This document shows positions 7,048 through 33,915 of a DNA stretch of 35,810 nt, piece by piece. Position numbers and translations under genes: made by a program. The notes beneath the pieces are model-generated. The model did no database searches. It was not told the DNA's origin and saw only the letters and a program-made list of their open reading frames with translations. Position 1 is the first letter of the stretch. Every line of letters begins with the position of its first letter. The DNA comes from a virus. Lineage: Duplodnaviria; Heunggongvirae; Uroviricota; Caudoviricetes. The DNA is taken from IMG/VR virus record IMGVR_UViG_2579778748_000004, positions 1-35,810 of that record; one strand, written 5' to 3'.

Positions 7048-8238
7048 TTAATTGCTGTTAACCGAGGTGACCAGATTTGCCAGGTATTTATCGGTAATAC
7101 GCTGGCGCAGGGTCAGGTTTTCAAGAGGAGGCACCGGTGTATAGTCGTAGTCGATATACAGTTTTCCGGCCTTGAGGGTTTCCGCATCGTTGGATTCTTC
7201 GCTGAACCAGCAGGTCGCATCCACGATATAGCCGTTTGTTTTCAGCTCACGGAATTTGGCATTGATGCCGTCAACGATGTCGCGAATCAGCGTTGCGGTG
7301 ATGGGCTTGTCCACCGCCCACATGTGCGCCTCAGCCATCGTGTCGGCCAGCACCTGCGCGGTGCGGGTGTAGTTTTCAAAGAGGAACAGCGGGTCATCAG
7401 AGCAGGTACGGTTACCCCAGAATCGGAAACCGTCACGGCGAATCAGCGTTGTGACACCTGACTCGTTCAACAGGTCAGCATCGGTGCCGGACTCCTGCAA
7501 ATCCCAGAATACAGAGGCACTGATGCCGGTAACACCGTTTACCCCGACGTTGGACAGCGTTTTATGCCAGCCCTGCTCCTGGTCGATTTTAGCGCGCAGG
7601 CCCAGCGCACGGGCGGTGGCATACGCGGTGGCGGTGGTACTGGCGACCGTATCCCATGCGAGGAAATCCGGCCAGATGACCATCAGCTCACGCTGGCTGA
7701 AATTCTGGCGGTAGGCTTTCACCTCGGAAATGGTTTTACAGCCCCATGCACTGATATACCCGAAAGCGCGCAGCTTCTGACAGACTGATGCCAGTGCAAC
7801 CGCCACCTCTTTGGTGTCCAGTCCCGGCACACCGAGAATACGCGGTTTAACACCGGTAACCGACTCCGCCGCCAGCAGGGCTTTCAGTCCGGTGTACTGA
7901 CCGTTTTCGTCGGTGGTGCCGATGATATTGGAAACAGTCTGCGCGAGTTTCGTTTCTTCGTCTTCGCCGGTCCCGTCTTCCACACGCACGACAACGGTGA
8001 CCGGTTTTGACTGGTCGGCGATGGCCTGCAACGATGCCGCCAGCGTGCCTTTTTTACCGGCCTTTGCAATTGCGCTCTGCACATTGGTAATCAGCACCGG
8101 TTTATTGAGGGGGAAGGTTTCCGCATCCGCATCGCTGGCCGTGCAGACCATGCCGACAATGGCCGTGGATACGGTGGAAATGACGCGGGTGCCGTCGTTA
8201 ATCTCCAGCACCTGCACGCCGTGATGATAGTCACTCAT
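7048..8238 (-). CDS. FI: Contractile tail sheath protein FI
   Basis: 396 aa; P2 synteny; GGAG ribosome-binding site upstream of the ATG at 8238. Confidence 0.9.
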   Translation of the reverse strand: MSDYHHGVQVLEINDGTRVISTVSTAIVGMVCTASDADAETFPLNKPVLITNVQSAIAKAGKKGTLAASLQAIADQSKPVTVVVRVEDGTGEDEETKLAQTVSNIIGTTDENGQYTGLKALLAAESVTGVKPRILGVPGLDTKEVAVALASVCQKLRAFGYISAWGCKTISEVKAYRQNFSQRELMVIWPDFLAWDTVASTTATAYATARALGLRAKIDQEQGWHKTLSNVGVNGVTGISASVFWDLQESGTDADLLNESGVTTLIRRDGFRFWGNRTCSDDPLFLFENYTRTAQVLADTMAEAHMWAVDKPITATLIRDIVDGINAKFRELKTNGYIVDATCWFSEESNDAETLKAGKLYIDYDYTPVPPLENLTLRQRITDKYLANLVTSVNSN

Positions 8239-8748: not shown

Positions 8749-9273
8749 TCAAGCTTCATTCTTTAGTTTTTCAATGTGATTAACCTCATCATTGCTTGCT
8801 TTAGCTGCTGATTGGCCTTTCTTACTTATAATCCCTTTAACATAATTTACATTATCAATGGAGGCATCTAAGAATTTTTGAAACGACTTAGAATTAAGCA
8901 TTTCTGTCCAAGGAGTAGTATGATCTTCATCTTTCACAAAACGCAATGGAGCCTCTTCAAGTCGACTTAGCGCAGAATCAAATAAGCGTTTTTCGAACTC
9001 TCCATCTGATACCTTGCATGCCTCATTTTTGTATCCCTCATACGCTTTAGCCACAGAAGCTTTATAAGCATAATCCTCTGCGAGTTTGAAACGTTGATTA
9101 ATTTGTTTTGTAGACATCCAAGCAAACCAAAGAGGGGCGCCTATGCTAAAAACAGATAATAGTAATTGAGTGAGTATTACTACCGCACTAGGATTTGGGT
9201 TATTCAAAACCCCAGAAAGAACTTTCAATCTTTCATATCCGACTAAACCACCAAGCCCCAAAGCAACTGCCAA
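8749..9273 (-). CDS. Hypothetical membrane protein, second gene of the Z/fun-position cargo operon
   Basis: 174-aa ORF; strongly hydrophobic segment AVVILTQLLLSVFSIGAPLWFAW predicted as transmembrane; AT-rich compared with flanking phage genes; the ORF-track start is a TTG, so the true start is uncertain. Confidence 0.6.
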   Translation of the reverse strand: MAVALGLGGLVGYERLKVLSGVLNNPNPSAVVILTQLLLSVFSIGAPLWFAWMSTKQINQRFKLAEDYAYKASVAKAYEGYKNEACKVSDGEFEKRLFDSALSRLEEAPLRFVKDEDHTTPWTEMLNSKSFQKFLDASIDNVNYVKGIISKKGQSAAKASNDEVNHIEKLKNEA

Positions 9274-9398
9274 ACCGGCAACCCATAGTTGGATACTTCG
9301 GTTAAGCTTATCTGCTTTTATTTCAAATGCTCCTGCTAAGCCTTTCGATGTTGAAGCCCTAATAGCCTCTTCGCAAAGAGCCAGATACCGGGCAGCCT

Positions 9399-10049
9399 CT
9401 ATATTTTTTCTTGCAACTCATCAATAATTTTTTTTGCGGCTTCTTCTTGGGACTCTAAACTGAAATGAGTTTTAGATATCTTCTCCTTTAAATCAGATGC
9501 TTCTTTGTTGTATTCCTTTAATTCATTTAAGTCTATAGGTATATTTTCTGCAGCTACATGAGCATCATTAATCGTTTTAACTTTACTCTCAAGAGCATCC
9601 ATCTCAGGATCAATCTTGTTAATTCTCGCCTCCATGCTTTTAATTTTTCTGCTTAAATTTCTAGGAAGTAAATTAGCATTATCCAACCGCTTCCATGTAA
9701 ACGATTCATCCAAGAAATGGTCAACATATGCCAGTGTTAGCATATATGAAGATATAGCTCGTGCGGAGTTAACGCCTGAGAACTCTGGGACGTGAACTCT
9801 AATGAGTGTGTCAATTTTTTCAGGGAGAGATGAATAAGCGGCAATTTCTTTTTCAGTTAGTTCAATATCACCATATGCTTTCAGCTTGTTAATAATGCAA
9901 ATTATTTGGTCAATTAGGTCATCTGATGTTATTGCCGGAACATCAACCCCAAGAGTATTCGTCATCAACCCATCTTGGATGGTCAGACCTTCTATAGCCT
10001 TCTCAAGCCTCAAAAGTGCGTCATAAGTTCCCTTAAAGCCAGTATGCAT
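9399..10049 (-). CDS. Hypothetical coiled-coil protein, first gene of the Z/fun-position cargo operon
   Basis: 216-aa ORF with an ATG start; K/E-rich heptad-like C-terminus (…EARINKIDPEMDALESKVKTINDAH… and …ESQEEAAKKIIDELQEKI); AT-rich; no catalytic motif I can recognise. Confidence 0.65.
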   Translation of the reverse strand: MHTGFKGTYDALLRLEKAIEGLTIQDGLMTNTLGVDVPAITSDDLIDQIICIINKLKAYGDIELTEKEIAAYSSLPEKIDTLIRVHVPEFSGVNSARAISSYMLTLAYVDHFLDESFTWKRLDNANLLPRNLSRKIKSMEARINKIDPEMDALESKVKTINDAHVAAENIPIDLNELKEYNKEASDLKEKISKTHFSLESQEEAAKKIIDELQEKI

Positions 10050-10343: not shown

Positions 10344-10871
10344 TTATTGCGGCATTTCTGGCCATTCAGGATTTGCAGTATCCACACGACTGACCAGAAC
10401 GTTGTAGCGTTCCCATGCTTCCAGTCGGCTGCGTTCCTCATCTGTTGCCATATTCAGCCTGACAGCGCGCTCCAGCGGCAAAATCACGGATTCAGCATCT
10501 GCAAGAAGTCTGCCTTTCCGATTTTCTGCCTGCTGCTGCAATTCCTCTGCCGTATAAATTCGTTTAATCACAGCACCATCCTTAAACATCCATTTACCTG
10601 AGTCGTCAGCACGTCGGTTGGAGGTAATATCAGGAACCTCAACAACGCTAAAACCTTCAGGATTAAGCGTTGAAGCATCTCTGGTGATAGCGACAATAAT
10701 ATTATTTTCATCGTAAACAATCTTTATTGTGTCTGGCTGAAAGTTCTTCACTTCCTCATACCAGTTTTTTCCGTCCTCAGAGTAAAGCCAGATAACTCCG
10801 TGTTTCTTTGTTAACTCATACTGTTCCAGTGTTTTAGCGTTACCCGCTTTTATGTTCTTTAAGTGCATCAT
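10344..10871 (-). CDS. G: Tail fibre assembly protein G
   Basis: 175 aa; directly downstream of the tail fibre gene; C-terminal ...[10 protein letters not shown] motif typical of tail-fibre assembly chaperones. Confidence 0.85.
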
Positions 10872-21740: not shown

Positions 21741-21913
21741 TGTCAGGAGTCCTGAATAGTGATTAGAGGAGTCACATGTCGGCATCAGTTTCCCGACGAT
21801 GCGCATCCTCCGCCATCAGTCCCGGATGGCTTATCACTGATACAACAGCACCTTAGCGAATCGCAGGGCGCGACTCAGTAGCCTTGCCGTGTATTCATCA
21901 CGGCGAGGTATTC

Positions 21914-23686
21914 ATGACCATCACCACAGACACCACTCTTTTACACGACCCGCGTCGTCAGGCGGCGCTGCTGTACTGGCAGGGGTTTTCCGTGCCGCAG
22001 ATTGCCGCCATGTTGCAGATGAAACGCCCGACGGTGCAGAGCTGGAAACAGCGCGACGGCTGGGACAGCGTTGCTCCCATCAGCCGTGTCGAAATGAGTC
22101 TGGAAGCGCGGCTGACCCAGCTCATCATCAAACCGCAGAAAACCGGCGGTGACTTCAAGGAAATTGACCTGCTCGGACGCCAGATTGAACGACTGGCGCG
22201 GGTCAACCGTTACAGCCAGACCGGCAACGAGGCAGACCTTAATCCGAACGTTGCTAACCGCAACAAAGGCGGGCGTCGCAAACCGAAAAAGAATTTTTTC
22301 AGTGACGAGGCCATCGAAAAGCTGGAGCAGATTTTCTTTGAGCAGTCTTTCGAATATCAGTTGCACTGGTATCGCGCAGGGCTTGAGCACCGCATCCGCG
22401 ATATCCTGAAATCCCGCCAGATTGGCGCGACGTTTTATTTTTCCCGCGAGGCGCTGCTGCGCGCCCTGAAAACCGGTCATAACCAGATTTTTCTGTCGGC
22501 CAGTAAAACGCAGGCGTATGTGTTCCGCGAATACATCATCGCCTTTGCCCGGCTGGTTGACGTTGACCTGACCGGTGACCCAATTGTCCTGGGCAATAAC
22601 GGCGCAAAACTGATTTTTCTCGGCACCAACTCCAACACCGCACAGAGCCATAACGGCGACCTGTACGTCGACGAGATTTTCTGGATCCCGAATTTTCAGG
22701 TACTGCGTAAGGTGGCATCAGGTATGGCCTCACAGAGTCACCTGCGCTCGACCTATTTCTCCACCCCGTCCACGCTGGCGCACGACGCCTACCCGTTCTG
22801 GTCGGGTGAACTGTTCAACCGGGGACGCGCCAGCGCCGCCGAACGTGTGGAAATCGACGTCAGTCATAACGCCCTTGCCGGTGGTCTTCTCTGTGCGGAC
22901 GGCCAGTGGCGGCAGATTGTCACCATTGAGGACGCCCTGAAAGGCGGCTGCACATTGTTCGACATTGAGCAGCTCAAACGCGAAAACAGCGCCGACGATT
23001 TTAAAAACCTGTTCATGTGTGAATTTGTTGACGACAAGGCATCGGTGTTCCCGTTTGAGGAGCTGCAACGCTGCATGGTCGACACGCTGGAAGAATGGGA
23101 AGACTATGCGCCGTTTGCCGCCAATCCGTTCGGCTCACGTCCGGTATGGATTGGTTACGACCCGTCACACCGTGGCGACAGCGCCGGATGCGTGGTACTG
23201 GCACCGCCAGTGGTGGCCGGTGGCAAATTCAGAATACTTGAGCGTCACCAGTGGAAAGGCATGGACTTTGCCACTCAGGCGGAATCCATCCGCAAACTCA
23301 CCGAAAAATACAACGTCGAATACATCGGTATTGATGCCACCGGCCTCGGTGTCGGCGTGTTCCAGCTCGTGCGCTCGTTCTATCCCGCCGCGCGCGACAT
23401 CCGCTACACGCCGGAAATGAAAACCGCAATGGTGCTCAAGGCAAAAGACGTCATCCGCCGTGGCTGTCTGGAATATGACGTCAGCGCCACCGACATCACC
23501 AGCTCGTTTATGGCTATCCGCAAGACCATAACCAGCAGCGGACGCAGCGCCACCTATGAGGCCAGCCGCAGCGAGGAAGCCAGCCACGCCGACCTCGCCT
23601 GGGCAACCATGCACGCCCTGTTAAATGAGCCACTCACCGCCGGTATCAGCACCCCGCTGACATCCACCATTCTGGAGTTTTACTGA
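21914..23686 (+). CDS. P: Terminase large (ATPase) subunit P
   Basis: 590-aa product from the ATG at 21914 (MTITTDTTLLHDPRRQAALLYWQGFSVPQIAAML…) with a ribosome-binding site; the ORF-track start at 21884 is a TTG extension; divergent from O as in P2. Confidence 0.85.
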   Translation: MTITTDTTLLHDPRRQAALLYWQGFSVPQIAAMLQMKRPTVQSWKQRDGWDSVAPISRVEMSLEARLTQLIIKPQKTGGDFKEIDLLGRQIERLARVNRYSQTGNEADLNPNVANRNKGGRRKPKKNFFSDEAIEKLEQIFFEQSFEYQLHWYRAGLEHRIRDILKSRQIGATFYFSREALLRALKTGHNQIFLSASKTQAYVFREYIIAFARLVDVDLTGDPIVLGNNGAKLIFLGTNSNTAQSHNGDLYVDEIFWIPNFQVLRKVASGMASQSHLRSTYFSTPSTLAHDAYPFWSGELFNRGRASAAERVEIDVSHNALAGGLLCADGQWRQIVTIEDALKGGCTLFDIEQLKRENSADDFKNLFMCEFVDDKASVFPFEELQRCMVDTLEEWEDYAPFAANPFGSRPVWIGYDPSHRGDSAGCVVLAPPVVAGGKFRILERHQWKGMDFATQAESIRKLTEKYNVEYIGIDATGLGVGVFQLVRSFYPAARDIRYTPEMKTAMVLKAKDVIRRGCLEYDVSATDITSSFMAIRKTITSSGRSATYEASRSEEASHADLAWATMHALLNEPLTAGISTPLTSTILEFY

Positions 23687-24720
23687 TGAGCAAGAAAAAA
23701 GGGAAAACACCGCAACCTGCGGCAAAAACAATGACCGCCAGCGCCCCGAAAATGGAGGCATTCACCTTTGGTGAGCCGGTGCCGGTACTCGACCGCCGTG
23801 ACATTCTGGATTACGTCGAGTGCATCAGTAACGGCAGATGGTATGAGCCACCGGTCAGCTTTACCGGTCTGGCAAAAAGCCTGCGTGCTGCCGTGCATCA
23901 CAGCTCACCGATTTACGTCAAACGTAATATTCTGGCCTCGACATTTATCCCGCATCCGTGGCTTTCCCAGCAGGATTTCAGCCGCTTTGTGCTGGATTTT
24001 CTGGTGTTCGGTAATGCGTTTCTGGAAAAGCGTTACAGCACCACCGGTAAGGTCATCAGGCTGGAAACCTCACCGGCAAAATATACCCGCCGTGGTGTGG
24101 AAGAGGATGTTTACTGGTGGGTGCCGTCCTTCAACGAGCCGACAGCCTTCGCGCCCGGCTCCGTGTTTCACCTGCTGGAGCCGGATATTAATCAGGAGCT
24201 GTACGGCCTGCCGGAATATCTCAGCGCCCTTAATTCTGCCTGGCTGAATGAGTCGGCCACGCTGTTCCGCCGCAAGTATTACGAAAACGGCGCTCATGCC
24301 GGATATATCATGTACGTCACCGATGCCGTGCAGGATCGCAACGATATCGAAATGCTTCGCGAAAACATGGTCAAGTCGAAAGGCCGCAACAACTTTAAAA
24401 ATCTGTTTCTCTATGCCCCGCAGGGGAAAGCCGACGGCATTAAAATTATCCCGCTCAGTGAAGTGGCAACGAAGGACGATTTTTTTAATATCAAAAAAGC
24501 CAGCGCCGCTGACCTGCTGGACGCGCACCGCATCCCCTTTCAGTTGATGGGCGGCAAGCCGGAGAACGTCGGGTCGCTGGGTGATATTGAGAAAGTGGCA
24601 AAGGTCTTTGTCCGCAATGAGCTTATCCCTCTACAGGACAGGATCCGCGAGATAAACGGCTGGCTCGGTCAGGAGGTCATCCGCTTTAAAAACTACTCAC
24701 TGGACACTGACAACGGCTGA
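23686..24720 (+). CDS. Q: Portal protein Q
   Basis: 344 aa; start overlaps the P stop (TGATGA); P2 synteny. Confidence 0.9.
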   Translation: MSKKKGKTPQPAAKTMTASAPKMEAFTFGEPVPVLDRRDILDYVECISNGRWYEPPVSFTGLAKSLRAAVHHSSPIYVKRNILASTFIPHPWLSQQDFSRFVLDFLVFGNAFLEKRYSTTGKVIRLETSPAKYTRRGVEEDVYWWVPSFNEPTAFAPGSVFHLLEPDINQELYGLPEYLSALNSAWLNESATLFRRKYYENGAHAGYIMYVTDAVQDRNDIEMLRENMVKSKGRNNFKNLFLYAPQGKADGIKIIPLSEVATKDDFFNIKKASAADLLDAHRIPFQLMGGKPENVGSLGDIEKVAKVFVRNELIPLQDRIREINGWLGQEVIRFKNYSLDTDNG

Positions 24721-25231: not shown

Positions 25232-25426
25232 TTATTTGTTCATTCGAATATAATTCAATAGCATCTTGATGACCTGAGCGAGTTCTACGCTAGTTGCCTG
25301 CGCAACCAGCTTATCGGTATATATGTCAACTTCGCGTGAACTAAGATCATTGTTTTGTGCCAGAGTGGTAATCTGCCTCGTCCAGCGTTTAACCCACTCA
25401 TTATCAAAAGAAATGGAATTTTGCAT
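25232..25426 (-). CDS. Hypothetical small protein (64 aa), divergent from the cargo genes; may be spurious
   Basis: AT-rich ORF whose ATG shares the palindrome CATG with the start of the opposite-strand 145-aa ORF; no convincing ribosome-binding site. Confidence 0.25.
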   Translation of the reverse strand: MQNSISFDNEWVKRWTRQITTLAQNNDLSSREVDIYTDKLVAQATSVELAQVIKMLLNYIRMNK

Positions 25427-25862
25427 GTCGAAAAATCTCGATTTATTTAACCAACAAACGGCGGAAATCTTTGCAGTACTATGGGAAAATTTTCCCGTAC
25501 CACAGGTGATTAACTACGACAAATTTAACGCCGCGCTACCTGATGACTACTTTGACCAACTTAACTCACCAGAAATGAAAGCGTTAAATCAGTTGCGTAG
25601 TGTGGTTGAAGGTACATTCAATTTTCTCTGTGAAAACGGGTACATTCAGTACAACACAGACCATCAGTCGTATTTTTACGATGTTCGACTTACTGAAAAA
25701 GCGCTCACAGTTCTTAACAAAAAACCCGAGGTGCTTGGTGGAAATGAAACGATGGGGGATAAAGTGATCAGTGCGGTGAAAGATGGGACTCCTGGGGTCA
25801 TTGCCGGTGTGATTACAAATCTGCTGACTCACGGCGTTAATCTGGTTGCGTCAGTGTCATAG
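25425..25862 (+). CDS. Hypothetical protein (about 145 aa), first gene of the old/tin-position cargo
   Basis: ORF-track frame 25323..25862; likely starts at the ATG at 25425 (MSKNLDLFNQQ…) or 25413; AT-rich; soluble-looking; no motif I can assign. Confidence 0.6.
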   Translation: MSKNLDLFNQQTAEIFAVLWENFPVPQVINYDKFNAALPDDYFDQLNSPEMKALNQLRSVVEGTFNFLCENGYIQYNTDHQSYFYDVRLTEKALTVLNKKPEVLGGNETMGDKVISAVKDGTPGVIAGVITNLLTHGVNLVASVS

Positions 25863-26024: not shown

Positions 26025-27116
26025 ATGGGTTACGAAATTGATTTTCTAGCTGTTGGCGAAAAAAAAAGCGGCGATGCGATCTGCATCAGATGGGGAAACC
26101 TACATGGTTCAAGAGATGAACAAAAAGTTGTCGTTATTGATGCAGGATATGCCAGCACCGGAGAACAAGTCATTGAGCATATTGAAAAATACTACCGCAC
26201 AAAAACTATTGACTTGCTTATCTCCACACACCCCGATGGTGACCACGTCGGTGGACTTACATCTGTTCTAGAAAATGCAGAAGTAAAAGAGTTTTGGATT
26301 CATAAGCCTTGGGAACATAATCAAGGTCTCGCAAGTGAGTTTGCAGATGGCAGGATAACTGATGCCAGTATTGCAAATCGAATGAAAGAAAACTTACAAA
26401 AAGCTTATGACGCTGTCAAATTAGCGGAAAAAAAAGGAATTGAAATAAAAGAGCCTTTTCAAGGAATGACCTGGGATAATGCTACTCTGGTTGTTATCGG
26501 GCCAACCCAATCTTACTATGAGACTCTAATACCTGATTTCGCAAGAATGCCCAAAAAAGCTGAGGATACAGCTGGATTTGAAGTACTAAAAGCAGTCTTT
26601 GAGTCTGTAGTTGAAAAAACGAAGAAATTTATTGATTACGTTGCTGAATGGTTTACTGATGAAGGTATTGATAATGAAGATACCACCTCGGCACAAAATA
26701 ACTCAAGTGTCATTTTGAAACTTGAGATTGATGGAAGAACGTTAGTGTTCACTGGCGATGCTGGTATAACAGCCTTAGATCAAGCCTCCCAATACATTAA
26801 TAAAGAATCATTAAGATTCATTCAAGTACCTCATCATGGTAGCCGGAGAAATGTAGGCCCTGATGTTCTCGATAAACTTGTTGGTAACATTGTAAATGAA
26901 GGCGAAAAAAGGGAGATAACCGCATTTGTATCATGTGCCCCAGGTTCAGATAAACATCCCCATCAAGCTGTAATTAATGCCTTTACTCGACGAGGAGCGA
27001 AAGTTATCGCCACCGAGGGGCTTGGTAAGTACCATTTTTATAATGCTCCTGAAAGGGCAGGATGGAAAACAGCCACTCCACGATCATACATTAGTAACTA
27101 TAGAACCGAAGAATAA
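26025..27116 (+). CDS. Metallo-beta-lactamase-fold protein, ComEC/Rec2-like, putative nuclease
   Basis: 363 aa with AAGGA ribosome-binding site; motif series VVVIDAGY, THPDGDHVGG (H-x-D-x-D-H), VFTGDAG and VPHHGSR fits the metallo-beta-lactamase fold of the ComEC type as I recall it; AT-rich. Confidence 0.7.
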   Translation: MGYEIDFLAVGEKKSGDAICIRWGNLHGSRDEQKVVVIDAGYASTGEQVIEHIEKYYRTKTIDLLISTHPDGDHVGGLTSVLENAEVKEFWIHKPWEHNQGLASEFADGRITDASIANRMKENLQKAYDAVKLAEKKGIEIKEPFQGMTWDNATLVVIGPTQSYYETLIPDFARMPKKAEDTAGFEVLKAVFESVVEKTKKFIDYVAEWFTDEGIDNEDTTSAQNNSSVILKLEIDGRTLVFTGDAGITALDQASQYINKESLRFIQVPHHGSRRNVGPDVLDKLVGNIVNEGEKREITAFVSCAPGSDKHPHQAVINAFTRRGAKVIATEGLGKYHFYNAPERAGWKTATPRSYISNYRTEE

Positions 27117-27129
27117 TTCAAAAGCTGCC

Positions 27130-27750
27130 TTACGGCAGCTTATTATTAACAGCATTTACTCTATATATTATGTATCTTATTTGTTTAATATATGAGACAA
27201 CAAACAAAATAGCAAAAACCGCCAACGTTATTTTAGATAAGCCATATGTCTCGCCAGTAAACCGTCCTACAACGCACAATGTCGCCAAAAGAATAATTGA
27301 CATTGAAAATATCGTCCTATACATATTCGCAATCTCTTGCAAAGTTTCAATTTTTCCATCCACACCACATGCTGACACATAATCTTTATAAGGAGCAAAC
27401 TTAATCAAACGCGATAGTTTTAAAAAAGGTTCCAATACGATAGAACCAATCCGGCCAATGACTAAGCCAACAAAATAATAGAGGACAACATTTTTTATTA
27501 AATCATCGCCAGATAAAACGATATTCGTCATTCTCTCAAGAAGATAAATAAAAAGAGCACCTGGAAAAAGATTATTAAATATATTATATGACGATATTTT
27601 TTCCCATAAACCATCCATACCAATCACCTTACTACAGTTTAAATCAGAGATCATTTTCATTGAAAAATACATATATAGCAAGAAATCTATAGCGATTCTG
27701 ACATCCAACCTGAGTCTATCAGTAGTTAATCTCTTCAGAAAAGAGTGCAT
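27130..27750 (-). CDS. Hypothetical multi-pass membrane protein (about 206 aa)
   Basis: ORF 27130..27762, with ATG at 27750; four to five hydrophobic helices; very AT-rich; convergent with the MBL-fold gene, stops 13 bp apart. Confidence 0.6.
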   Translation of the reverse strand: MHSFLKRLTTDRLRLDVRIAIDFLLYMYFSMKMISDLNCSKVIGMDGLWEKISSYNIFNNLFPGALFIYLLERMTNIVLSGDDLIKNVVLYYFVGLVIGRIGSIVLEPFLKLSRLIKFAPYKDYVSACGVDGKIETLQEIANMYRTIFSMSIILLATLCVVGRFTGETYGLSKITLAVFAILFVVSYIKQIRYIIYRVNAVNNKLP

Positions 27751-27904
27751 AACGAAAACCAATCACAGGAAATCGGCTATGTAAATTTTCGACCGTCGTA
27801 TATCAATGGTACACCACGCCCCCCACGCTTACATTACTTCTGTGTGATGCCATACTGAGCGAGGTCTATATAAATACTAGTAATTTATCACAAACCTGAT
27901 TTGA

Positions 27905-28049
27905 TCAGCCTCGCGATGGCACAAATGCAAGCGGTTTTAACGGACTTCCGTTTCTTTGCTGACGATTTGGTATTCTCAGACCGTGTTTTAATGCACCTCT
28001 GAGCGCCCTCACGACCGCCGGATCATTCCATTCGATTACCCGTCATCAA
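27905..28049. repeat. Degenerate direct repeat of the A 3' region, copy 1 (spans the A stop codon)
   Basis: About 120 bp at 27931..28049 is roughly 92% identical to 28263..28382 inside A; weaker similarity extends about 25 bp further upstream. Confidence 0.75.
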
Positions 28050-30378
28050 ATTGATTCCACTCTGTTATAGTTGAATATCCCGGCCACTCATCAGCGACCG
28101 GATACGTGAATTTTTTCCCGTCATAATTTACGGTTGCCCCACGCGCCAGCGACTCAAGCTCCCATCGCTGAGGTCTGATACCGTTCTGAGCAAGATCAAC
28201 GCGAATACGGGTAATTTGCAATCGCTCCGACCTGGTCAGCCTGGCTGATGGCGCTATTTCATGCGGTTTTAACGGACTTCCGTTTCTTTGCTGACGATTT
28301 GGTGTTCTCAGTCCGCATTTTAATGCACCTCTGAGCGCCCTCACAACCTCCGGGTCACTCCATTCGATAACACCGTCATCAACCAGATTAAGCACTGCTG
28401 CGGCGTGTTCAGAAGGTGTGGGAGCCGGTAACGAAGTATCACCACCGGTGAGCTTTCCACAGTTATTGACAGGACTCCGAGGCGCGGCGATGCCGCTTTT
28501 TAAAGTCAAAGGCTCAACGACCGGAACTTTCGGCACAATGCGCCAGTCCGTCGTTCTGGTGATATGAATATGACGCGCGCCGAGATGCGGCGCGTAAATG
28601 CCGACCACTCTCCCGACTTCTTCCTCGTACTCGTTAACGTCATCCGACGGGCTACGGGCGACTCTGACAGTCTGGCAATCACGCGGAACATTTGCCCCAC
28701 CCTGCGCGCTGATATACAACGCAAAATCACCACTGTCTGCGGCGGCACGTGCAGCCTCAACTCGTTCGTCAAACTCATCAGCAATGCTGACGCCGCGAGG
28801 CAATTTGCGTAGTTCACGGTAAGCCCCCATTGTCGGCAGGCCAACCGTTTTAAATTGCGGGATGCGCCACGTTGACGCCCATGCGGTAACAGCCGCAGCA
28901 GTATCTTTCAGCGGCCTGCCGGTATCGTTATCGAGCTGACCATCCAGTGCATAGCCATCGATGTTTTTTGAGATGTATTTCGCGATATACCCCGCAGCAC
29001 CGCCCCGGTTAAGATGTTTTGCCTGAAAACGGTTTCGCGCGGCTCCTCTTTCGTCGCCATCCTCTTTGAGCGCATAGCGACGCATGATTTCGATAATCTG
29101 GTTACGCTGGCGTGGATTACAAAAAAGCATCATATGCCAGTGCGGCGTTCCGTCGTGGTGTGGCTCGACGACTCGCAAACCGTAGACCTGTAAATCATTA
29201 TCCTTGAATGCCGTGCGCATCAGGCTCCAGATACGGCAGAGATAACGCTGCGCATCCTTTGGATTAAATGCCTCATCGTTCCAGCCGTGATTAAGCTGAA
29301 CGGTTTTACTTTCGCCTTTTCTGACCTGACGAGTCGGGTGATACTTTGACGGCGCGGTCAGCGTGATAAACATCCCCACATCACCCTCTGCGGCGGCGTA
29401 ACGCTCAATACCGGCAATGGTGTTCATCAGCTCCATCCGGCGAATTTCAGGATTAGAAATACTGCCCATCACCTTACTGATAAGGTCGATGCGCTCGCCG
29501 GTTTCCCTGTTTTCAAGGTCACACGATTTAAGAAATTCCAGATTTGCCTGGCGGCGCGCACGCACATCACGAATGGCGTGTTTACTGGCATAAGGAGAAC
29601 GGTCTTTATTGACCTCCCCGACAGCTATCAGTAACGCTTCATGCCAGCGCATACGCTGGCCTTTAAGCTGATGAGTCCACCACTCATCGTTAAACAGACG
29701 GGCAATGGCAGAATATGCCTGCCTCGTGGTCATCTGCCCTTTACGGTATTTTTTCCAGTAGAGAGGGGAAATATTGAAAGCACGTGCAGCGCCAGCAACA
29801 TGACCATAGAGGTGAGCCTGCGCCTCATCCGTAAACAGCGATTCTTTTTCGCCATGCGCATCCACCCAGGCATCGCTGAGTTCCTCATACATCATGAAAA
29901 GCTGCGATGAGATACGGGCAGCAAACTTTTTCAGCTCCTTGTCATTCATTCCCGGCAGGCGCGCATAGTGGTCACGCTCTGCCAGAAACAGTAACGACGC
30001 GTCGGTGTTCATTTCATGGCGCTGATTCACACGCTCAATGCGCGGCCATAAACGACGCTGAAAAGTGGATGTGAGGAAATAAAACCCGTGTACCGGGCTT
30101 TTATTGCGCCGGATGTAGTCATAGCGTGAAGTAAACAGCGAGCGCAAAAAGTAAGGCAGGCGGTTAATCGTGGATAAAACACCTTGCACCTGACGCATCT
30201 CGTCACGTGTAAGGGGTCTTTCGCGCCCGACGGCCTCGCGTGGCGCGTTCCATGCATAAGCACCGGTAAACGCCTTACCGGTGCCTGCAGCAAATGCTGA
30301 AGGAGGGACAAAACGCCCGGAGGCTTTAACGGCCATATGAGCCAAAAGCCTCTGAACAACGCCTGCTGAGTTGCTCAA
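28036..30378 (-). CDS. A: Replication initiation protein A (rolling-circle HUH endonuclease)
   Basis: 780 aa; HUH-type motif …TPHWHMMLF… and tyrosine pair …YIAKYISKNIDGY…; P2 synteny. Confidence 0.9.
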   Translation of the reverse strand: MSNSAGVVQRLLAHMAVKASGRFVPPSAFAAGTGKAFTGAYAWNAPREAVGRERPLTRDEMRQVQGVLSTINRLPYFLRSLFTSRYDYIRRNKSPVHGFYFLTSTFQRRLWPRIERVNQRHEMNTDASLLFLAERDHYARLPGMNDKELKKFAARISSQLFMMYEELSDAWVDAHGEKESLFTDEAQAHLYGHVAGAARAFNISPLYWKKYRKGQMTTRQAYSAIARLFNDEWWTHQLKGQRMRWHEALLIAVGEVNKDRSPYASKHAIRDVRARRQANLEFLKSCDLENRETGERIDLISKVMGSISNPEIRRMELMNTIAGIERYAAAEGDVGMFITLTAPSKYHPTRQVRKGESKTVQLNHGWNDEAFNPKDAQRYLCRIWSLMRTAFKDNDLQVYGLRVVEPHHDGTPHWHMMLFCNPRQRNQIIEIMRRYALKEDGDERGAARNRFQAKHLNRGGAAGYIAKYISKNIDGYALDGQLDNDTGRPLKDTAAAVTAWASTWRIPQFKTVGLPTMGAYRELRKLPRGVSIADEFDERVEAARAAADSGDFALYISAQGGANVPRDCQTVRVARSPSDDVNEYEEEVGRVVGIYAPHLGARHIHITRTTDWRIVPKVPVVEPLTLKSGIAAPRSPVNNCGKLTGGDTSLPAPTPSEHAAAVLNLVDDGVIEWSDPEVVRALRGALKCGLRTPNRQQRNGSPLKPHEIAPSARLTRSERLQITRIRVDLAQNGIRPQRWELESLARGATVNYDGKKFTYPVADEWPGYSTITEWNQFDDG
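28237..28382. repeat. Degenerate direct repeat of the A 3' region, copy 2 (inside the A coding sequence)
   Basis: Pairs with 27905..28049; within A it encodes ...VDDGVIEWSDPEVVRALRGALKCGLRTPNRQQRNGSPLKPHE. Confidence 0.75.
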
Positions 30379-32901: not shown

Positions 32902-33915
32902 ATGGCAATCAAAAAACTCGATGATGGTCGATATGAAGTGGACATCCGCCCTACTGGACGTAACGGAAAACGCATCCGTAGGAAGTTTGATAAGAAAAGC
33001 GAAGCTGTCGCTTTCGAAAAATACACGTTGTACAACCACCACAATAAAGAATGGCTATCAAAACCAACAGACAAACGACGTCTGTCGGAACTGACACAGA
33101 TCTGGTGGGATTTAAAGGGTAAACACGAAGAGCATGGGAAATCTAATCTTGGAAAAATTGAAATCTTCACAAAAATAACGAATGACCCATGCGCATTTCA
33201 AATCACGAAATCCCTTATCAGCCAGTACTGCGCCACCCGAAGAAGTCAGGGTATTAAACCTTCGAGTATCAATCGTGATTTAACATGTATTAGCGGCATG
33301 TTTACAGCCCTGATTGAAGCGGAGTTATTCTTTGGTGAGCACCCTATCAGAGGGACAAAGAGGCTTAAGGAGGAAAAACCAGAAACAGGCTATCTCACAC
33401 AGGAAGAAATTGCCTTACTGCTTGCAGCACTTGACGGCGACAACAAAAAGATTGCGATTCTTTGCCTGAGTACAGGAGCACGTTGGGGAGAAGCAGCTCG
33501 TTTGAAAGCAGAAAATATCATCCATAACCGCGTCACGTTTGTTAAAACGAAAACAAACAAACCACGCACCGTCCCGATCTCAGAGGCTGTTGCCAAAATG
33601 ATCGCGGATAACAAACGAGGTTTTTTATTCCCTGATGCTGATTACCCTCGCTTCAGACGAACAATGAAAGCAATAAAACCGGATTTGCCAACGGGGCAAG
33701 CCACACATGCACTAAGGCACAGCTTTGCCACTCATTTCATGATTAATGGAGGAAGTATTATCACGCTACAACGGATACTAGGTCACACGCGGATTGAGCA
33801 AACTATGGTTTACGCTCATTTTGCGCCAGAGTACCTTCAGGACGCCATTTCTCTTAATCCGCTAAGAGGTGGTACTGAAGCCGAGAGTGTCCACACAGTG
33901 TCCACAGTAGAGTAA
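32902..33915 (+). CDS. int: Tyrosine integrase Int
   Basis: 337 aa; tyrosine-recombinase catalytic region (…HALRHSFATHFM…ILGHTRIEQTMVYAHF…); located next to the att core. Confidence 0.9.
   Translation: MAIKKLDDGRYEVDIRPTGRNGKRIRRKFDKKSEAVAFEKYTLYNHHNKEWLSKPTDKRRLSELTQIWWDLKGKHEEHGKSNLGKIEIFTKITNDPCAFQITKSLISQYCATRRSQGIKPSSINRDLTCISGMFTALIEAELFFGEHPIRGTKRLKEEKPETGYLTQEEIALLLAALDGDNKKIAILCLSTGARWGEAARLKAENIIHNRVTFVKTKTNKPRTVPISEAVAKMIADNKRGFLFPDADYPRFRRTMKAIKPDLPTGQATHALRHSFATHFMINGGSIITLQRILGHTRIEQTMVYAHFAPEYLQDAISLNPLRGGTEAESVHTVSTVE

Follow-up and report, generated by a model that had tools for sequence, protein, structure and literature searches.

Between the replication gene A and the portal gene Q of a P2-like prophage, a gene for a small membrane protein converges on a gene for a metallo-β-lactamase (MBL)-fold enzyme. 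We studied this pair in a stretch of 35,810 nucleotides (IMG/VR virus record IMGVR_UViG_2579778748_000004), hereafter the window, and call the membrane protein the TM (transmembrane) protein. Side by side and over their full length, both genes matched PDC-M48 (M48A + M48B), a candidate system of PADLOC-DB v2.0.0 in which PDC means 'phage defence candidate'; by sequence, the pair is a member of PDC-M48 with no differing feature. An earlier note on this DNA had proposed that the TM protein could belong to the neighbouring MBL system. Its place as a membrane component of that system gained strong support from co-occurrence: PADLOC treats the pair as a single system, 75 of 80 loci had an MBL-fold gene no more than 2.5 kb away, and the narrow gap between the genes recurs in other hosts. 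We regard it as probable that the two genes form a single functional unit of defence. That the TM protein is its effector, rather than a sensor or an anchor, is a reading that we favour tentatively, giving it somewhat less than an even chance. The family of the TM gene is already catalogued, in PDC-M48 of PADLOC and in the P2 hotspot table of Rousset, and the sighting is not new. What is new here is that this TM family, which lacks fold relatives, is tied to the third slot of the 6A-MBL system.

Co-occurrence of the TM and MBL genes

The TM protein matched the PDC-M48A profile PDLC04670 with an E value of 1.5e-50 (169.6 bits, profile positions 1-162 of 164) and PHROG 11864 over its full length (6.6e-98). 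For the MBL, the PDC-M48B profile PDLC04676 gave 1.1e-100 (335 bits), followed in PADLOC by weaker matches to LmuA (101 bits), RTasMBL (70 bits) and Avs1a (51 bits); the Pfam family Lactamase_B matched with 6e-12.

In a survey of 5426 complete E. coli genomes, an identical cassette was present in 23, and a variant of about 74% identity in 22 more. The variant was also found in the isolated Peduovirus phages P2_4E6b, D8, 11W and 12W, where the order of A, TM gene, convergent MBL gene and cos is that of the window. The order was repeated in P2/186-like prophages of Klebsiella, where 13 bp separated the genes, the distance between the two stop codons that had been noted for the window and that we found again. 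The convergent pair with 13-14 bp between the genes recurred in Klebsiella, Huaxiibacter and isolated Peduovirus phages. The pair travels together among different P2-like prophages, with or without other cargo.

For a scan across bacteria, we used one genome per species and fetched 80 loci. Relatives of the TM protein were present in 268 species-level genomes from Proteobacteria, Bacteroidota, Firmicutes, the candidate phyla radiation (CPR), Chlamydiae, Planctomycetota and other phyla. Co-occurrence with MBL genes was examined at two distances. An MBL-fold open reading frame (ORF) lay at most 150 bp from the TM gene in 61 of the 80 loci, on the same strand in 60 of them, and commonly with just 4 bp between the genes or a slight overlap. 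Within 2.5 kb, as stated above, an MBL-fold ORF was present in all but five loci, two of which were at contig edges. In Faecalibacillus intestinalis (loci L171-L174, 6916..9436), a DUF4365 protein precedes the TM-MBL pair, which lies inside a polysaccharide-biosynthesis locus with no obvious defence island.

The MBL partners fell into three very divergent subfamilies: window-like proteins of 355-365 aa (21 loci), shorter proteins that matched other PDC-M48B profiles (40 loci), and a third class (11 loci). The TM protein was about 50% identical whatever the class of its partner. The ComEC-type metal motif HxDxDH was prevalent in each of the three classes; the pattern was found in all MBLs of the strong class and in 27 of 34 of the short class.

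Homologues of the TM protein reached E values of 1e-60, and 1216 cluster representatives (clustered at 50% identity) matched its profile among 1.84 billion representatives. For these reasons, and because its dN/dS (the ratio of non-synonymous to synonymous substitution rates) was 0.12-0.17 against two enterobacterial orthologues, the TM gene is very unlikely to be a chance ORF. The best 150 of the 1216 representatives measured 158-216 aa each and contained no domain fusions, neither with an MBL nor with unrelated domains; fusion to unrelated genes was one of the findings that the earlier note had named as evidence against its reading.

We found one natural knockout. In E. coli GZEC065 (NZ_CP048025.1, locus L179, 3345..6534), a 2.58-kb ISEc12 element of the IS21 family, with a 7-bp duplication, interrupts the variant TM gene after about codon 31, and the adjoining MBL gene (WP_021533447.1) is 100% intact. 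This natural knockout is viable, and therefore the MBL does not depend on the TM protein as an essential antitoxin. With disruption of the TM ORF and retention of the MBL gene, which the earlier note had counted as evidence against its reading, in only 1 of the 45 E. coli genomes, it is a sporadic event and not a pattern.

The same note had also allowed for an independent, single-gene superinfection-exclusion protein. Such a protein, or a moron protein, that merely sits beside an MBL gene would be in keeping with a Shine-Dalgarno sequence and promoter-like element of its own, with convergent transcription in enterobacterial prophages, and with a small membrane protein at the P2 tin/old position. 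We rejected this explanation because an MBL-fold gene was present within 2.5 kb in 75 of the 80 genomes: the TM gene is almost never found without an MBL partner, in many phyla, and the partner is mostly on the same strand and a few bp away. The treatment of the two genes as one system in PADLOC and the movement of the pair as a unit among P2-like prophages also make an independent exclusion gene very improbable.

The TM family in the third slot of 6A-MBL

The '6a' in the name of 6A-MBL refers to row 6a of Table 1 of Iyer et al. 2006, a triple-module E2-E1-JAB protein beside a specialised MBL (PMC1779556). NCBIfam lists two genes, and no membrane component, under 'anti-phage 6A-MBL system' (NF058523 and NF058524). 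As cited in passages of later papers, van den Berg et al. 2024 reportedly found anti-phage activity of 6A-MBL in P. aeruginosa.

The third class of MBL partner belonged to operons in which an MBL of about 390 aa was followed by a protein of about 765 aa that combines Prok-E2_A, ThiF and Prok-JAB domains (the cap2_3 gene) and then by the TM protein. This order of MBL, E2-E1-JAB and TM genes was seen in about 10 of the 80 genome loci. The first two genes of these loci scored above the NCBIfam cutoffs, with 286-359 bits against NF058524 (cutoff 220) and 330-537 bits against NF058523 (cutoff 320); genuine 6A-MBL loci scored 260-359 bits against NF058524. The TM gene lay directly after cap2_3 in genome loci (L006, L010, L017, L020, L021, L031, L054, L062 and L070) and in metagenomic ones (L092-L096, L098, L115, L119, L120 and L165), and these third-slot homologues matched the TM-family profile of the window protein with 206-223 bits. 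Every 6A-class MBL among the matches listed, counting the eight commonest variants, had the HxDxDH pattern.

To see what else fills this slot, 80 metagenomic 6A-MBL operons were fetched with a cap2_3 query, and the gene immediately after cap2_3 was classified. It encoded a patatin-like phospholipase in 19 operons (confirmed with Pfam for one), a member of the window TM family in 10, and other multi-TM proteins in about 25, which formed BLAST clusters of 12 and 9 with a few others. The remaining operons had a second MBL (4), small ORFs without TM segments (about 12), no gene on the same strand (2) or a contig end (3). The other multi-TM proteins were tried as relatives of the window TM protein and rejected as unrelated (hhalign probability below 1%). 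On plasmids of Rhizobium, Streptomyces and Rhodococcus, the slot held a patatin, as two ORFs in Rhizobium; on the Rhodococcus DK17 plasmid no annotated gene followed cap2_3. This survey suggests that 6A-MBL usually has three genes and not the two of NCBIfam.

At least two further third-slot families, of 209-285 aa and with no Pfam match (for example, 6192..6818 in L106 and 5803..6504 in L090), had 3-4 hydrophobic segments arranged as two TM segments, a soluble region and two more TM segments. Two operons were composite. In L165 (5176..6556), the 6A-MBL gene, cap2_3 and TM gene are followed by a short MBL of PDC-M48B type, and in L169 (3694..5594), the 6A-MBL gene, cap2_3 and a patatin gene are followed by a TM gene. 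These operons suggest that the modules combine.

MBLs of the 6A class ended in ...VVKNG, ...TYG(N) or ...GFG(xx), with a terminal G or a G that 2-4 further residues follow. By analogy, these tails resemble those of conjugated CD-NTases, and we infer a role in conjugation.

The gene model of the TM protein

The reading frame proposed in the earlier note (27130..27762) is open and its gene is real, and its AT-richness was evident, with a G+C content (GC) of 32.1% in a window that has 51.3% overall. The proposed length of 206 aa proved over-extended at the 5′ end. The start codon is the ATG at 27618, giving a protein of 162 aa. We accepted this start because five lines of evidence agreed. A strong Shine-Dalgarno sequence (AAGGTGA, 27630..27624) precedes this ATG by 5 nt, and the other candidate in-frame starts have none. 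RefSeq protein WP_021561351.1 in loci of 100% identity corresponds exactly to 27130..27618. Both the PADLOC and the PHROG match start at the Met encoded at 27618. In each of the 40 homologues aligned, the protein begins some 5 residues ahead of an invariant EKISSYNIFNxLFPG motif. Finally, the variant cassette (L002; 64% identical) has an in-frame TAA 5 codons upstream of the equivalent Met.

A longer product of 206-210 aa with five helices, starting at 27750 or 27762, has in its favour a frame uninterrupted back to 27762 in the window. Neither start has a ribosome-binding site, however, and RefSeq, PADLOC, PHROG and the homologues all begin at the later Met. In the variant cassette, a stop closes the extension, and a promoter-like element within it is kept. 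We therefore rejected the 206/210-aa ORF, which is hardly credible, for the 162-aa one. That element, TTGCTA (27681..27676) followed after a 17-nt spacer by GAAAAT (27658..27653), is conserved in the variant cassette together with the Shine-Dalgarno sequence, and we infer that it may be the promoter of the TM gene. A scan for consensus promoters and terminators gave nothing informative for this gene.

The TM gene is on the same strand as A and downstream of it, as the earlier note had it. The word 'directly' was loose, with 417 bp between the stop of A and the TM start. The position likened there to that of P2 orf91/tin/old was correctly placed: the locus is the cargo interval of P2 from A to Q and cos.

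Structure and conserved residues of the TM protein

An AlphaFold2 (AF2) model of the 162-aa protein had a pLDDT of 88.9 and a pTM of 0.82 and contained four long helices (residues 11-31, 40-68, 89-121 and 126-157) and a short one (77-86). The protein is thus predicted to have four TM helices and a short cytoplasmic helix, with both termini inside (N-in/C-in). Of the 'four to five' hydrophobic helices claimed before, the four agreed with this model, and the possible fifth fell in the noncoding 5′ extension. The invariant polar residues of the family are K7, S9, S10, Y11, N15, R56, Y77, R101, T102, K145 and Q146. By the positive-inside rule, all of them would be at the cytoplasmic face, and a cluster of this kind would suit the reception of a trigger.

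Pfam and NCBIfam scans of the TM protein gave no family, and a Pfam scan of 40 family members gave no family in more than 2 of the 40 and no effector or ligand-sensor domain. A sequence-profile search of the Protein Data Bank (PDB) with the family found no relative, and fold searches with the model found no informative match.

Two candidate identities were tried and rejected. Some homologues (P0001, P0010-P0013 and others) are named 'phosphohistidine phosphatase' by RefSeq. No such Pfam or NCBIfam model matched even at E ≤ 1, and the PDB profile and fold searches were empty; the label is probably an annotation artefact. The TM part of ComEC was rejected in turn, with no match to the Competence domain and no fold match to solved ComEC.

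The MBL partner and the DNA between the genes

The MBL has its invariant residues intact: HxDxDH (H69-D71-D73-H74), D245, H270/H271 and H311. Its closest solved relative, both by sequence and by fold, is the MBL domain of ComEC (9ic4, Foldseek E value 8.9e-15), and next in line are Pce, a phosphorylcholine esterase of the pneumococcus, RNase J and RNase Z; its AF2 model had a pLDDT of 88.4. The protein ends in ...SNYRTEE, and a conserved acidic, aromatic tail characterises the window class (PYPEDQEED elsewhere).

In RefSeq, the MBL goes by the name 'ComEC/Rec2 family competence protein'. We rejected this identity on a score of 49.2 bits against a cutoff of 190 for TIGR00361; only the MBL domain is homologous. 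The MBL gene of Peduovirus record NC_049389.1 (gp43) is labelled 'tail protein', and PHROG 7043 is also 'tail', a label for which the profile and fold searches that we ran gave no support.

A perfect 8-bp hairpin (Table 1) spans the 13-bp gap between the two genes and holds the stop codon of the TM gene in its loop. Folded as RNA, its two strands gave computed energies of -14.0 and -14.4 kcal/mol. A scan for consensus terminators did not call it; the hairpin is possibly a bidirectional terminator shared by both convergent genes.

Effector or sensor

In the model that we favour, the TM protein at the inner membrane and the MBL enzyme would make up a self-contained two-gene anti-phage cassette, carried as cargo of the P2 hotspot. 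The MBL, catalytically active and upstream, would respond to infection. The TM protein, downstream, would be triggered through its conserved cytoplasmic-face site, either by the MBL protein itself or by a product of its phosphodiesterase activity, and would then perturb or depolarise the inner membrane so that the infection is aborted. The cassette may represent a minimal form of 6A-MBL without the E2-E1-JAB regulator, as type I does relative to type II in CBASS (cyclic-oligonucleotide-based anti-phage signalling system).

An effector is favoured because the TM family shares its slot in 6A-MBL with patatin and multi-TM proteins and because its invariant residues cluster at the predicted cytoplasmic face. 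In CBASS and Pycsar, it is just such swapping of membrane-attacking proteins that marks a slot as that of the effector. Of the earlier term 'membrane effector', the membrane partnership is supported by co-occurrence, and the choice of effector over sensor is a matter of interpretation.

Several observations weigh against this model. The nearest characterised defence MBLs, those of Avs and Hachiman, are dsDNA-nuclease effectors (PMC12642450), and since defence MBLs and the ComEC domain are nucleases, the MBL may itself be the killer. An identity of about 50% across phyla is unusually high for a pore-former, and no similarity to known TM effector families was found by Pfam or fold search. With two 'effector-like' proteins, the scheme has no evident sensor. 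A membrane gene was absent from the slot in about 14 of the 80 metagenomic 6A-MBL operons. Finally, PDC-M48 is a computational database candidate only, and the literature searched contained no mention, phenotype or mechanism of it.

In the main rival model, the TM protein would serve as a membrane sensor or anchor: it would detect DNA injection or envelope perturbation and recruit or activate the ComEC-like MBL as a DNase, so that incoming phage DNA would be degraded at its site of entry. Such a scheme would be similar to Zorya (ZorAB with a nuclease), Kiwa (KwaA with KwaB) and ComEC (an MBL nuclease on a membrane channel). The kin of the MBL are indeed nucleases, namely the ComEC MBL domain and the Zn-dependent dsDNases among defence MBLs (PMC12642450), and the LmuA, RTasMBL and Avs1a profiles match it. 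The conserved cytoplasmic-face residues and the identity of about 50% would fit docking or sensing better than a generic pore, and the acidic MBL tail (YRTEE) could dock on basic cytoplasmic loops of the TM protein. However, patatin and unrelated multi-TM proteins in the same 6A-MBL slot are hard to read as sensors. The TM family, in spite of its uniformity, pairs with three very divergent MBL subfamilies, and no TM-MBL fusion was seen in the best 150 of the 1216 representatives. On balance we consider a sensor or anchor a real but somewhat unlikely alternative.

If the TM protein is an effector, as we favour, a broader proposal follows the same lines. ComEC-like defence MBLs might here be no terminal nucleases but the upstream signalling enzymes of a third immune family that works like CBASS and Pycsar. 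Once the MBL had sensed infection, a product of phosphodiester cleavage, or direct action of the MBL, would switch on interchangeable effectors (the four-TM family described here, two multi-TM families and patatin), E2-E1-JAB would be an optional primer, PDC-M48 would be 'type I', and the 162-aa protein would be a new membrane effector gated by a ligand or a partner. We give this proposal as a whole about one chance in four.

A role outside defence was also weighed: a split ComEC-like machinery for DNA uptake or processing, remodelling of envelope phosphodiesters, or a benefit to the phage in lysogeny. Consistent with such a role are the RefSeq name of the MBL, its second-best fold match (Pce, an esterase that acts on teichoic-acid phosphorylcholine), the polysaccharide-synthesis locus around the Faecalibacillus pair and the fact that about one-quarter of P2 hotspots hold non-defence cargo (PMC9122126). 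Against it stand the ComEC equivalog score, 49 bits where 190 are needed, and the finding of no Competence or OB domain and no TM match in a PDB library that includes full-length ComEC. The TM family is also tied to 6A-MBL, which is anti-phage according to NCBIfam and to the passages of the citing papers, and the cassette, low in GC and carried on mobile elements, occurs only patchily, in 45 of 5426 E. coli genomes. We judge a non-defence role improbable.

Setting in the prophage

The interval between Q and A is a low-GC island of 3 kb (about 40% GC against 51% for the window) and contains only four ORFs, those of the MBL, the TM protein and two proteins of 145 and 64 aa (Table 1). In P2-like phages of E. 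coli, variable cargo gathers in a hotspot, the cos-proximal interval between gpA and gpQ, and much of this cargo was shown experimentally to be anti-phage (Rousset 2022, PMC9122126). WP_021561351 and WP_021561350 appear in Table S5A of that study as 'hypothetical + Lactamase_B + hypothetical + hypothetical' and are absent from the tested systems of its Table S2.

Table 1. Positions of the features of the window discussed in the text
Feature	Coordinates	Strand	Evidence
Terminase gene P	21884..23686		
Portal gene Q, border of the hotspot	23686..24720	+	RefSeq 'phage portal protein' in identical locus L001
64-aa ORF (PHROG 2454)	25232..25426	-	
145-aa ORF (PHROG 2266)	25425..25862	+	
ComEC-like MBL-fold metallo-phosphodiesterase, 363 aa (PDC-M48B; WP_021561350.1)	26025..27116	+	PADLOC, Pfam, fold
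Perfect 8-bp hairpin, AAGCTGCC-TTAC-GGCAGCTT	27122..27141	.	Sequence; RNA fold
TM protein of the PDC-M48A family, coding sequence, 162 aa	27130..27618	-	RefSeq WP_021561351.1, profiles, alignment, AF2 model
Spurious 5′ extension; noncoding leader/promoter DNA	27619..27762	-	Shine-Dalgarno sequence, promoter-like element, TAA in variant cassette L002
P2 replication gene A, other border of the hotspot	28036..30378	-	Pfam Phage_GPA 1.4e-122
Integrase, adjoining a host yegS-like gene	32902..33915		

The 64-aa and 145-aa ORFs are divergent with overlapping start codons (CATG), and neither matched Pfam, PADLOC or NCBIfam. This module (25232..25862) is missing from the variant cassette, and it adjoins cargo of a retron-type reverse transcriptase and a helix-turn-helix protein in P2-like prophages of O157:H7. 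The two ORFs were ruled out as third components of the cassette on these grounds. We therefore treat the TM-MBL pair as a unit and the module as separate.

Elsewhere in the window, two ORFs without a Pfam match (174 aa, 8749..9273, minus strand; 216 aa, 9399..10049, minus strand; GC 0.37-0.42) lie between a tail-fibre assembly gene (10344..10871, Caudo_TAP) and a 396-aa ORF (7048..8238) that we take, from P2 gene order alone, to encode the tail sheath. This second low-GC patch (8749..10049) is at the P2 Z/fun position and may be a second cargo locus.

Significance

The additions made here to the catalogued system are a corrected gene model, the demonstration of the pair as a unit without its 145-aa neighbour, and the link to the third slot of 6A-MBL. 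The same conserved four-helix protein without fold relatives is common to the two-gene cassette and to 6A-MBL. This would give MBL immunity a testable architecture of an enzyme, an optional E2-E1-JAB protein and a membrane effector. The 1.6-kb cassette of isolated Peduovirus phages offers an easy E. coli/P2 model for a ComEC-like MBL in defence.

Comparison with known systems

The cassette has the position of P2 old/tin/orf91, between A and cos/Q, but no sequence relationship to these genes; neither of its genes matched Old or Tin in Pfam or PADLOC. Rst_Hydrolase-3Tm (Rousset 2022) is similar in joining a hydrolase to a small multi-TM protein in an element of the P2/P4 family beside cos. It was ruled out as the identity of the cassette: its hydrolase is HAD-like and its place is the psu-int hotspot of P4 (PMC9122126), whereas the window has a Lactamase_B enzyme in the A-Q hotspot of P2. 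Vassallo 2022 and the Millman 2022 preprint make no mention of MBL systems.

The MBLs of Avs1a and HamMAB and those associated with DRT and Lamassu share a distantly related fold with the window MBL. One characterised MBL of that group is a protease-activated, Zn-dependent dsDNA nuclease (PMC12642450). In place of a protease, the window MBL has a membrane protein as its partner; no protease gene was present beside it, and it gave no sign of two-site zymogen cleavage.

6A-MBL is closer. It shares with the window a ComEC-like MBL enzyme with HxDxDH and, in the third slot of some operons, a homologue of the TM protein. It differs in having the E2-E1-JAB (cap2_3) gene, of which there is none between Q and A of the window. 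The window MBL also scored only 33.9 bits against the NF058524 cutoff of 220, and it ends in its acidic tail, without the terminal Gly pattern of the 6A class.

The likeness to CBASS and Pycsar, in their type I and type II forms, lies in an enzyme combined with a membrane-acting protein, an optional E1-E2/JAB regulator and an effector slot with swapping occupants. The enzyme there is a nucleotidyl cyclase, whereas that of the window is an MBL-fold phosphodiesterase. The TM effectors of those systems were rejected as identities of the TM protein, in which Pfam recognised no S_4TM, SLATT, cNMP or SAVED domain. The likeness is thus an analogy in the mode of working and not a claim of membership.

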